Virus record (IMG/VR): IMGVR_UViG_2811995091_000080
Location: 1-64,000 of that record
Strand: one strand, 5' to 3'
Origin: a virus
Taxonomy: Duplodnaviria; Caudoviricetes
Length of the DNA: 64,000 nt
Shown here: piece after piece, positions 6,527 to 50,862 of the stretch
How the letters are laid out: each line of letters starts with the position of its first letter
Numbering within the stretch: the first letter of the stretch is position 1
Program-made: the position numbers and the translations under genes
Notes under the pieces: model-generated
Database searches by the model: none
What the model saw: only the letters and a program-made list of their open reading frames with translations
Told to the model about the DNA's origin: nothing

Positions 6527-7374
6527 TGGAAGCAGTATGGAAGAACCACAACCCGCTACTTTCGCGGCCCATTCTTAACCCGACGATGCGGGTGGTTTCG
6601 CATGGCGGCGGGGTGCAGACGTCTACGTTGCTCGTCATGGCCGCGCGTGGCGACATCGGGCCGATGCCAGATGCCGCAATTGTCGCTGATACGGGCGACG
6701 AGCCGAAGGAGGTGTGGGAGTATCTTGATTACATCGAGCCGATGATCCCGTTCCCCATCTACAAGGTGCAGCGCGGGGACATAATCCAACACATCAAGCG
6801 GGGCAAGAACCCGAATGACATAGGCCAGCGCGCCACCCTCCCTCTCTACTTGCAGGATGGGGGGCAGATGATGCGGACATGCACAGCCTCGCTCAAGATT
6901 GACGCTGTGACCGCTAAAATCCGCGAGATGATGGGGCTGACTAAGGGGCAGAAGCCGCCGAAGGATACGCTTGTTGAGGTGTGGATCGGCATCAGTATGG
7001 ACGAGAAGCGCCGCGCTGGAGGATTTCCGGCAAAGCCCTGGCAGTCCGTGCGTTACCCCCTGCTTGAAGCCGATATGACGCGAGGCGATTGCGAACGGTA
7101 TCTTGCGGAGCGACAAATCAAAATCCCGCCGCGTTCTCGCTGTCGGATATGCCCTTATCGCAGTGACGAGAGCTGGCGCGAACTTTCGCCGGAAGATTTT
7201 GAACACGCCTGTCGCGTGGATGACATGATGCGTGAGGGCGGCACCCCTCTAAAGGGCATGGACAGCCTTGCCTACCTCCATCGGGATAGGAAGCCGCTGC
7301 GCGATGTCGATCTTACCGCCCCCAGCATGGGGCTGCCCCTTGAAGACGATTGCTTTGGAGTATGCGGAACATGA
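6526..7374 (+). CDS. PAPS reductase-like PP-loop (adenine nucleotide alpha-hydrolase) protein
   Basis: SHGGGVQTS PP-loop, ADTGDE, CT...LKI, RSRCRICPY, terminal Cys cluster. Confidence 0.8.
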   Translation: MEAVWKNHNPLLSRPILNPTMRVVSHGGGVQTSTLLVMAARGDIGPMPDAAIVADTGDEPKEVWEYLDYIEPMIPFPIYKVQRGDIIQHIKRGKNPNDIGQRATLPLYLQDGGQMMRTCTASLKIDAVTAKIREMMGLTKGQKPPKDTLVEVWIGISMDEKRRAGGFPAKPWQSVRYPLLEADMTRGDCERYLAERQIKIPPRSRCRICPYRSDESWRELSPEDFEHACRVDDMMREGGTPLKGMDSLAYLHRDRKPLRDVDLTAPSMGLPLEDDCFGVCGT

Positions 7375-7697
7375 CACGTGCGGAAACGATAAGCTATCCG
7401 GTGCAGATTTGGATTGCAGGCGATCACGCAAAGGCGATCGAGACATGCCGCTCCTATTGTGATGAAATGGGGTTCTGCGTCACGGTTACGCCGACCACCT
7501 ACGTCTACACTGGCGGGCAAGAGGCGGGAGTCTGCATCGGGCTAATCAACTATGGGCGTTTTCCCTCCGAACCACGCTCGATCTTCAACCGCGCTCGCGA
7601 GATTGGCGATGTGCTTTTGAAGGCGCTGGGCAGAAATCATACACCATCCAAGCGCCAGACAGGACGCTTTGGATTAGCCATCGAGAGCGCCGCCTAA
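7371..7697 (+). CDS. Conserved phage hypothetical protein, C-terminus probably frameshifted
   Basis: CVTVTPTTYVYTGGQEAGVCIGLINYGRFP. A plausible C-terminus (KSYTIQAPDRTLWIS) lies in another frame. Confidence 0.6.
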   Translation: MTRAETISYPVQIWIAGDHAKAIETCRSYCDEMGFCVTVTPTTYVYTGGQEAGVCIGLINYGRFPSEPRSIFNRAREIGDVLLKALGRNHTPSKRQTGRFGLAIESAA

Positions 7698-8599
7698 TGG
7701 CTGAGGACATCATCAAGTATCAGGAGGGCCGAGAGGCAGCGATACGCGGGCGCAAGCTTCGGGTGCTGGATCTCTTCAGCGGCATAGGCGGCTTCTCCCT
7801 CGGCCTTGAACGCGCAACAATGGAAGGTGCTGAGTATGTCGGCTTCGAAACAACGGCGTTCTGCGAAATCGAAGAGTTCCCCCGCAAAGTCCTCGCCAAG
7901 CACTGGCCCGATGTGTCCTGCTACCGAGACGTGCGAGAGCTTACCGCAGAGCGACTTGCTGCCGATGGAATTGCCGTCGATGTCATCTGCGGAGGGTTCC
8001 CCTGCCAGGACCTATCGACGAGCGGAACGGGACTTGGCCTTGCTGGTGAGCGAAGCGGGTTATGGTCTGAGTTCAAGAGGCTCATTCGCGACATTCGACC
8101 AAGCTACGTTGTCTTGGAAAACAGCCCAGAGCTGCTTGATGGGTGGTTGGGAGACGTTGTCGGGCCGCTGGCCTCGTTCGGGTATGACGCGGAGTGGGAC
8201 TGCATACCAGCGAGCGCCGTTGGTGCCCCTCACCGCCGCGACCGCATCTGGCTTATTGCCTACCCCTCTGGCGGGGGACAATCGCAGTCGTGGGGATGTC
8301 TCAACACCGTGCATCCAGCGTCGGATGCGTATCGGGAAGCAGATCATGTTGTCGATGCTGTTCAAAGGCGCGCCCTGCCCTTCGTGTGTGGAAGGCATGA
8401 TGGGCTTCCCGGAGGGGTGGACCGCCTTAAAGCCCTCGGAAACGCAGTAGTGCCCCAAATTCCCGAGCTAATCGGACGGGCAATTCTAGCTGCGCAAAAC
8501 ACCACGATACGCGGGGATAAACGCGACGCACGCAAGCATTCTGACTGGCTGCAAGGCTATGATGCAGTCCGGCCCACCAGCACAGCGGGAAGGGAATAG
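7697..8599 (+). CDS. C5 cytosine DNA methyltransferase, alpha subunit (fused in-frame into a minigene)
   Basis: Motifs I (DLFSGIGG), IV (GGFPCQD), VI (ENS), VIII (HRRDR) and X (LGNAVVP) present. Motif IX absent. Confidence 0.93.
   Translation: MAEDIIKYQEGREAAIRGRKLRVLDLFSGIGGFSLGLERATMEGAEYVGFETTAFCEIEEFPRKVLAKHWPDVSCYRDVRELTAERLAADGIAVDVICGGFPCQDLSTSGTGLGLAGERSGLWSEFKRLIRDIRPSYVVLENSPELLDGWLGDVVGPLASFGYDAEWDCIPASAVGAPHRRDRIWLIAYPSGGGQSQSWGCLNTVHPASDAYREADHVVDAVQRRALPFVCGRHDGLPGGVDRLKALGNAVVPQIPELIGRAILAAQNTTIRGDKRDARKHSDWLQGYDAVRPTSTAGRE
7806..8450 (+). CDS. Nested +1-frame ORF, putative methyltransferase beta subunit carrying motif IX
   Basis: LLPTP and CVEGMMGFPEGWT. True start may be ATG 7965 or 7980. 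Same arrangement in B. Confidence 0.7.
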   Translation: MNAQQWKVLSMSASKQRRSAKSKSSPAKSSPSTGPMCPATETCESLPQSDLLPMELPSMSSAEGSPARTYRRAERDLALLVSEAGYGLSSRGSFATFDQATLSWKTAQSCLMGGWETLSGRWPRSGMTRSGTAYQRAPLVPLTAATASGLLPTPLAGDNRSRGDVSTPCIQRRMRIGKQIMLSMLFKGAPCPSCVEGMMGFPEGWTALKPSETQ

Positions 8600-49997: not shown

Positions 49998-50119
49998 TGG
50001 CTGAGGACATACTGAAATACCAAGCAGGCCGAGAGGCAGCAATACGCGGGGATAAGCGCGACGCACGCAAGCATTCTGACTGGTTGGAAGGCTATGATGC
50101 AGTGGCAGGAGATAGGTGA
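49997..50119 (+). CDS. 40-aa Rmf/CrpP-like minigene (uninterrupted allele)
   Basis: MAEDILKYQAGREAAIRGDKRDARKHSDWLEGYDAVAGDR. Its two halves flank the methyltransferase in A. Confidence 0.7.
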   Translation: MAEDILKYQAGREAAIRGDKRDARKHSDWLEGYDAVAGDR

Positions 50120-50862
50120 TGGAAGAAGTGCGCGCCTTGTCGATGTTTTCCGGGTGCGGCGCGCTAGATCTCGGTCTGGAGCGGGCAGGAATATCTGTCG
50201 TCGCGCAGTGCGAGATAGAGCCGCACGCAATCGGGGTGCTTGGAAGGCACTGGCCCGATACGCCGAACCTTGGGGACGTCCGAACGGCACCCTTTCACGA
50301 AGTCACAGCAGAAATGGTCGCTGCCGGCTTCCCTTGTCAGGATATAAGCAATGCAGGAAACCGCGCCGGAATTGAGGGTGAACGCAGCGGGCTTTGGTCC
50401 GAAGTCGTGCGAGCCATTAGCCTGGTACAGCCGCAGTGGGTCTTGCTGGAAAACGTGGCAGCACTGCTTAGTCGAGGATTGGGGAGGGTTCTCGGAGACT
50501 TGGCCGCGCTCGGGTTTGATGCTGTCTGGCATTGCATACCGGCTTCCCACGTTGGCGCGCCCCATAACCGCGACCGCATCTGGATCACGGCTGCTTCCCA
50601 CGCCCTCGGGGGTGAACGGTGGGCGAAACCATACTGTCGGACGCTTGGACGAATGGGGCGGGAGCAGCAATCCGTTCCGTGGGACCGAGATTGGCAAAGT
50701 GCGCTGTGCGAGCTTCGAGGAATGGATGATGGGTCTGCCTATCGGGTGGACCGAATTGATACCCTCCGAAACGCGGTTGTCCCGCAAATCGCGGAAACCA
50801 TCGGGCGGGCTATAATCGCGGCTAATCGCGCGATCTCCACTGACACAGCGGGAAGGGAATAG
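50116..50862 (+). CDS. C5 cytosine DNA methyltransferase, alpha subunit
   Basis: MFSGCGA, AGFPCQD, LENV, HNRDR, RNAVVP. Motif IX absent. Confidence 0.92.
   Translation: MMEEVRALSMFSGCGALDLGLERAGISVVAQCEIEPHAIGVLGRHWPDTPNLGDVRTAPFHEVTAEMVAAGFPCQDISNAGNRAGIEGERSGLWSEVVRAISLVQPQWVLLENVAALLSRGLGRVLGDLAALGFDAVWHCIPASHVGAPHNRDRIWITAASHALGGERWAKPYCRTLGRMGREQQSVPWDRDWQSALCELRGMDDGSAYRVDRIDTLRNAVVPQIAETIGRAIIAANRAISTDTAGRE
50351..50815 (+). CDS. Nested +1-frame ORF, putative beta subunit with motif IX
   Basis: LLPTP and FEEWMMGLPIGWT. Confidence 0.7.
   Translation: MQETAPELRVNAAGFGPKSCEPLAWYSRSGSCWKTWQHCLVEDWGGFSETWPRSGLMLSGIAYRLPTLARPITATASGSRLLPTPSGVNGGRNHTVGRLDEWGGSSNPFRGTEIGKVRCASFEEWMMGLPIGWTELIPSETRLSRKSRKPSGGL

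Follow-up and report, generated by a model that had tools for sequence, protein, structure and literature searches.

A prophage cytosine-5 DNA methyltransferase gene conserved in two overlapping reading frames, as in a putative two-chain enzyme

The window analysed is a 64,000-nucleotide stretch of viral DNA (IMG/VR record IMGVR_UViG_2811995091_000080, positions 1 to 64,000) that includes two related prophages, A and B. In prophage A, one ORF carries C5-methyltransferase motifs I, IV, VI, VIII and X (Table 1). Pfam PF00145 matched only residues 22-191 of this main frame (alpha), corresponding to profile positions 2-163 of 324 (E 6.3e-37), and phrog_363 matched with an E-value of 2.1e-72. No recognisable segment was found between motif VIII and motif X. 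The +1 frame is free of stops from within alpha motif I to within alpha motif X, and encodes LLPTP and a motif IX. The earlier note, which had claimed that the main frame lacks motif IX and that the +1 frame encodes LLPTP and motif IX-like sequence, was confirmed on these points. The +1-frame protein (beta) had no match in Pfam at E<=1 but did match phrog_1008 (E 5.4e-17).

Table 1. Features of the methyltransferase locus and of related sequence in prophage B.
Feature	Coordinates	Strand	Description
alpha chain gene	7697-8599	+	Catalytic chain of a C5 cytosine methyltransferase, 300 aa; start overlaps the stop of the upstream gene (TAATG, 7695-7699)
alpha motif I	7775-7792	+	FSGIGG, AdoMet binding; its ATA codon creates the +1-frame stop TAG at 7785-7787; invariant columns
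alpha motif IV	7994-8008	+	GFPCQ, catalytic cysteine; invariant in alignments A1 and A3
alpha motif VI	8117-8125	+	ENS, a variant of ENV; E141 and N142 invariant
alpha motif VIII	8228-8263	+	PHRRDR followed by a hydrophobic strand; R181 and R183 invariant; last codons (AYP) are the same bases as beta's PTP
alpha linker	8267-8404	+	Off-frame reading of beta's recognition segment; sequence unconstrained, kept only stop-free
alpha motif X	8438-8455	+	GNAVVP, followed by a C-terminal helix; G248 and N249 invariant
+1 open frame	7788-8450	+	Listed ORF 7806-8450
beta chain gene, most likely form	7836-8450	+	204 aa from ATG 7836; other possible starts TTG 7806, ATG 7911, 7965 and 7980, and GTG 8046
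Shine-Dalgarno site of ATG 7836	7822-7827	+	GGAAGG
beta target-recognition segment	8253-8387	+	Begins with LLPTP (8253-8267); T73 invariant, P72 and P74 nearly so in alignment A2
beta motif IX	8388-8423	+	VEGMMGFPEGWT; M119 and P122 invariant, E116 and G120 nearly so; overlaps the alpha codons just upstream of motif X
beta stop codon	8448-8450	+	TAG, inside the codons of alpha motif X
prophage B minigene	49998-50120		40 aa, intact
prophage B beta start	50351		ATG, right after a +1 stop

Upstream of the gene are a PAPS-reductase-like gene (phrog_424) and a phage gene of unknown function (phrog_4848). No restriction enzyme was recognised nearby. The first 18 residues of alpha, and most of its tail after motif X, correspond to a minigene that is intact in prophage B, and the methylase core sits in frame between two copies of an 11-bp repeat. 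Prophage B carries an independent second example of the two-frame gene, in which the beta ATG lies 8 nt after an AGGA supplied by the Q-D codons of motif IV.

For this locus alone, the openness of both frames was not significant by permutation (p about 0.16-0.22). We compared 161 loci, comprising the window, 80 related loci from genomes and 80 from viral contigs. Of these, 127 have motifs IV and VIII in frame 0 and a motif-IX-like sequence in the +1 frame before the next +1 stop, 2 have motif IX in frame 0, 10 have no motif IX before the +1 stop, 2 run off their contig and 20 did not fit the motif patterns used. The set of 127 was defined without reference to the two properties then tested. 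From motif VIII+10 to motif IX+8, frame 0 was stop-free in 127 of 127 loci, as against 31.6 expected when beta's synonymous codons were permuted and 21.8 when beta's codon order was shuffled; the third frame was open in 3. From motif IV+18 to motif VIII+10, the +1 frame was stop-free in 127 of 127 loci, as against 39.2 expected from synonymous permutation of alpha codons; the third frame was open in 5. In the nine loci below 50% G+C, the per-locus chance of an open +1 frame was 1-7% in eight and 23% in the ninth. The last +1 stop upstream was never later than motif IV+16. The loci, which were retrieved with alpha as query, are related to one another, so they are not 127 independent trials, although they span Alphaproteobacteria, Patescibacteria, Chloroflexota, Chlamydiales, Bacteroidota, Actinomycetota, Planctomycetota, Firmicutes and one archaeal MAG. 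In most loci motif IX sits 13 codons before GNAV, and in relatives the +1 stop lies 9 codons before to 30 codons after motif X.

The frame under selection was found to change along the gene. Between motifs I and IV, in 205 pairs with 80-97% alpha identity, differences per site at alpha codon positions 1/2/3 were 0.12/0.09/0.46, which is ordinary selection on alpha alone, and in the 40 codons before motif IV the identity of the +1 frame equalled that of the unused frame (0.52 vs 0.54). From motif IV+18 to motif VIII the pattern flattened to 0.20/0.12/0.32, and the +1 frame was slightly better conserved than the unused frame (0.69 vs 0.65; 0.49 vs 0.41 in more distant pairs). Between motifs VIII and IX, in 90 equal-length pairs, differences at beta positions 1/2/3 were 0.149/0.143/0.336, and protein identity was 0.79 in the beta frame, 0.60 in alpha and 0.57 in the unused frame. 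Between the window and 7 equal-length relatives, differences over 8262-8420 fell 73/64/168 on +1-frame positions 1/2/3, with protein identity of 0.60-0.83 for beta and 0.40-0.56 for alpha. So beyond motif VIII beta is the protein under selection, and alpha there drifts like non-coding DNA, except that stops are purged. The junction codons show the same thing, in that beta's PTP is kept while alpha reads AYP in one subfamily and AHA in another.

The identity of the +1 motif as motif IX rests on two Rickettsiaceae-type variants among the loci, L027 and L031, which carry the same motif in frame 0 a few residues upstream of motif X. In those proteins PF00145 matched the whole profile (positions 1-324). 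Window beta residues 112-127 aligned to L027 alpha residues 363-378 with 11 of 16 identical (E 4e-5). The PTP-repeat recognition segment of L027 and L031 is still in the +1 frame, so the split point differs but the two-frame principle holds. A search for single-chain relatives holding a beta-like segment plus PF00145 gave only one hit, P0275, an ORF that switches from the alpha frame to the beta frame before motif IV and is probably a frameshifted copy.

The AlphaFold model of alpha, built on 69 sequences, had a mean pLDDT of 81.3. Confidence was above 90 over motifs I-VIII and over motif X with its helix (91-95 over residues 250-270), and fell to 43-54 for residues 191-245, exactly the stretch that is off-frame to beta and is modelled as disordered. 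The model of beta (134 aa from the GVG-equivalent start GTG 8046, built on 81 sequences) had a mean pLDDT of only 69.7, with 43-67 over the leader part and 77-88 over the recognition segment plus motif IX. A profile of 81 beta sequences gave only a chance hit against PDB sequences (E 0.87). The beta model had no PDB neighbour with Foldseek and a best Z of 2.4 with VIA-align wide, which is not informative for a subunit modelled without its partner.

No beta start codon is conserved across the family; several positions are each used in 25-45% of loci, and some are followed by stops. Of the 16 candidate starts in the window, ATG 7836 had the best Shine-Dalgarno pairing (-6.8 kcal/mol, compared with -7.0 for the next gene and -3.0 for the alpha start). 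This ATG and its Shine-Dalgarno site lie in a seven-codon insertion that only the window's subclade has. Beta-like proteins with a distinct N-terminus (the P0227 subfamily) were not free-standing, as alpha overlaps them fully. In three loci of this subfamily beta opens beside the alpha start, and we infer from their translations that the beta ATG lies 4 nt after the alpha ATG; 57 loci of the subfamily have a complete, stop-free alpha, against 13 of the 80 in which no beta was recognised.

A phmmer search with the +1-frame protein gave 7,997 cluster representatives at E<=1e-3 in a library of predicted proteins; those inspected carry no Pfam domain and are beta-frame gene calls. The GenBank records examined show one call per locus. 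In the closest cultured-phage relative, Sulfitobacter phage phiGT1 (MT584811.1), beta matches the +1 frame of gp51, annotated as 'cytosine DNA methylase', at 52% identity, and only the alpha frame is annotated. Plasmid records annotate one methyltransferase gene, and no E. coli plasmid match was found. In Mycobacterium phage DosHalletts the beta frame is annotated as a hypothetical protein and a complete alpha is left uncalled.

Taken together, the locus most likely makes a cytosine-5 DNA methyltransferase from two polypeptides encoded on the same DNA in two frames, a reading we hold with reasonable though not full confidence. Alpha would be the catalytic large domain, comprising motifs I-VIII, an unstructured linker of about 55 residues whose sequence does not matter, and motif X with its helix, folding back onto the large domain. 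Beta, probably started separately at ATG 7836, would have a dispensable leader overlapping alpha motifs I to VIII, followed by the recognition segment and motif IX, which together would form the small domain that docks on alpha without a covalent link and reads the target sequence. Keeping alpha open through the recognition segment is needed only if ribosomes read alpha through to motif X, and keeping the +1 frame open is needed only if beta starts upstream of motif VIII. Independent translation of beta, assembly of the chains, the need for both and the biological role are inferred, without transcript, ribosome-profiling or peptide evidence for either chain. As no restriction enzyme was recognised beside the gene, it most likely acts as an orphan phage methylase that protects phage DNA from host restriction.

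The earlier note's interpretation, a heterodimer made from one dual-coding locus of a solitary phage methyltransferase, is supported by the comparative evidence, and +1-frame stops are not common in homologs. The nested chain, however, supplies the whole target-recognition segment and not only motif IX. The layout is not a peculiarity of this prophage but a property of a very large family, and annotation does not always miss the nested chain, as the note had expected, but records one frame or the other, never both.

Among the alternatives, a single +1 frameshift after motif VIII, giving a fusion of motifs I-VIII, the recognition segment and motif IX that works with or instead of full-length alpha, is unlikely. 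In the window, a shift at CCC-T (8264-8267) would join AYP directly to the residues that follow LLPTP in beta. The fusion would nevertheless lack motif X, which is strongly conserved in frame 0, and the model does not explain why the +1 frame is kept open for 60 or more codons upstream of motif VIII or why frame 0 is kept open through the recognition segment. Two programmed frameshifts, to +1 after motif VIII and back to frame 0 before motif X, would share this junction and give a canonical single-chain enzyme with its parts in canonical order, but this is similarly improbable. Neither kind of openness would be needed. There is no frame-0 stop or hungry codon at the junction, the junction codons differ between subfamilies, and the second junction lies in a different place in L027 and L031; no conserved shift sites were seen, although no formal search for stimulatory RNA structure was run. 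Two efficient shifts in one gene would also, to our knowledge, be without precedent.

It is also unlikely that only alpha is functional, with the +1 frame being a relic of a frameshifted ancestor or a by-product of alpha's conservation and G+C-rich codon use. The lack of +1 conservation upstream of motif IV fits this view, much of the apparent +1 conservation between motifs IV and VIII is a by-product of alpha, and one locus, L013, has lost the +1 frame. However, it is the +1 frame that is under purifying selection between motifs VIII and X, the +1 frame is stop-free in AT-rich genomes, and alpha alone has no recognition domain and a disordered linker. A beta protein with a function unrelated to methylation is about as unlikely; beta alone has no Pfam, PDB sequence or fold match, but it always co-occurs with alpha on the same bases, carries the motif that is motif IX in single-frame variants and fills exactly the gap that alpha has. 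A sequencing or assembly artefact is excluded by recurrence of the layout in 127 loci from genomes and viral contigs and in cultured phages.

We consider it more likely than not that this gene is one member of a very large class of phage and prophage C5 methyltransferases in which the second chain is not annotated, the whole DNA-recognition module is a separate polypeptide translated from the +1 frame of the catalytic-chain gene, and the stretch of the catalytic chain between motifs VIII and X is selected only to stay free of stop codons. This would make it one of the most widespread long same-strand gene overlaps in prokaryotic viruses, and would imply that the published domain assignment of M.EcoHK31I should be re-examined. 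A description of the layout as a family property was not found in the literature searched. Predictions of specificity, and any cloning of a single annotated ORF, would miss half of such an enzyme. The placement of the recognition module in a different frame from the catalytic core matters for reading phage methylomes and anti-restriction strategies and for engineering split methyltransferases. The family also gives hundreds of diverged loci for studying how two proteins share one stretch of DNA, and the alpha linker is a clear natural case of a coding stretch selected only for being open.

Compared with single-chain C5 methyltransferases such as M.HhaI, of which residues 12-172 align only to alpha residues 21-190, the motif order along the DNA is canonical, but the small domain (recognition segment plus motif IX) is not in the same reading frame as the large domain. 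M.AquI (CYCGRG) is also a natural C5 methyltransferase assembled from two chains split within the variable region (PMC3404938); its small subunit carries the distal variable region plus motifs IX and X, whereas here motif X stays on alpha and the beta gene is nested out of frame. Split C5 methyltransferases have been shown to reassemble in vivo (PMC3404938). The layout itself is already known from M.EcoHK31I (E. coli HK31, YGGCCR; Lee, Kam and Shaw 1995, as described in PMC2836561 and PMC3404938), a C5 methyltransferase that needs alpha, with motifs I-VIII and X, plus a beta encoded entirely inside the alpha gene in another frame and carrying motif IX. The first 42 residues of its beta are dispensable in vitro and internal Met codons can initiate (PMC2836561), which fits the unconstrained leader and the lack of a fixed start seen here. 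M.EcoHK31I belongs to a restriction-modification pair, and its predicted target-recognition domain is placed in alpha by the published descriptions. In the present prophage gene, most likely an orphan, the selected recognition segment is in beta, and alpha's segment between motifs VIII and X is neutral filler.

A second, different two-frame methyltransferase was found in prophage B. Its alpha matches PF00145 (E 7.5e-38), and nested within it is a 154-aa +1 ORF containing WPRSG, LLPTP and a motif IX ending in GWT, which matches phrog_1008 (E 4e-17). Compared to GNAVVP, the alpha motif X in prophage B reads RNAVVP. The positions of this and the other features are listed in the table.

Coordinates of the features in the window and in related loci.
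Sequence	Coordinates	Feature
Window, prophage B	50116-50862	alpha of the second two-frame methyltransferase
Window, prophage B	50351-50815	beta of the second two-frame methyltransferase, +1 frame
Window, prophage B	49998-50120	minigene, intact
Window, prophage A	7697-7750 and 8505-8599	minigene, split by the methylase core
Window, prophage A	7740-7750 and 8505-8515	two copies of CGATACGCGGG
Window, prophage A	about 7811-7840	seven-codon insertion in alpha
Window, prophage A	7836	ATG of the +1 frame
Window, prophage A	7695-7699	overlap of the alpha start with the stop of the upstream gene (TAATG)
Window, prophage A	6529-7374	PAPS-reductase-like gene
L242 (Mycobacterium phage DosHalletts, PP978828.1)	280-1152 and 587-1132	alpha and beta-frame ORFs
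L027	3034-4269	variant with motif IX in the alpha frame
L031	2959-4074	variant with motif IX in the alpha frame
L013	2929-3699	alpha without a beta

A 40-aa minigene that is intact in prophage B is split in prophage A by the methylase core, which is inserted in frame between the two copies of CGATACGCGGG. The last residues of the prophage A alpha resemble the C-terminus of the prophage B methylase, and two proteins, P0003 and P0007, share the same minigene tails around a different core. The seven-codon insertion in the prophage A alpha, which was found only in the window's subclade, supplies both the Shine-Dalgarno-like GGAAGG and the ATG for the +1 frame, and lies just downstream of the +1 stop that an ATA codon creates in motif I. 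The overlap between the alpha start and the stop of the upstream gene suggests translational coupling, and the PAPS-reductase-like gene (phrog_424, E 3.7e-31) lies two genes upstream.

In the Rickettsiaceae and Megaera variants (loci L027 and L031), motif IX is in the alpha frame, while the PTP-repeat recognition segment is still in +1. The +1 frame of L031 has internal stops, so it may be decaying. The relative L013 has a short linker of 57 codons between motifs VIII and X and many stops in +1, and this alpha without a beta is either defunct or working differently. A predicted protein from a metagenome (P0275, 293 aa) starts in the alpha frame (motif I) and continues in the beta frame from before motif IV, and is probably a frameshifted copy or an assembly error. 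In Mycobacterium phage DosHalletts the annotated gene 71 ("hypothetical protein") is the beta-frame ORF, and a complete alpha with all the catalytic motifs lies unannotated in the other frame.
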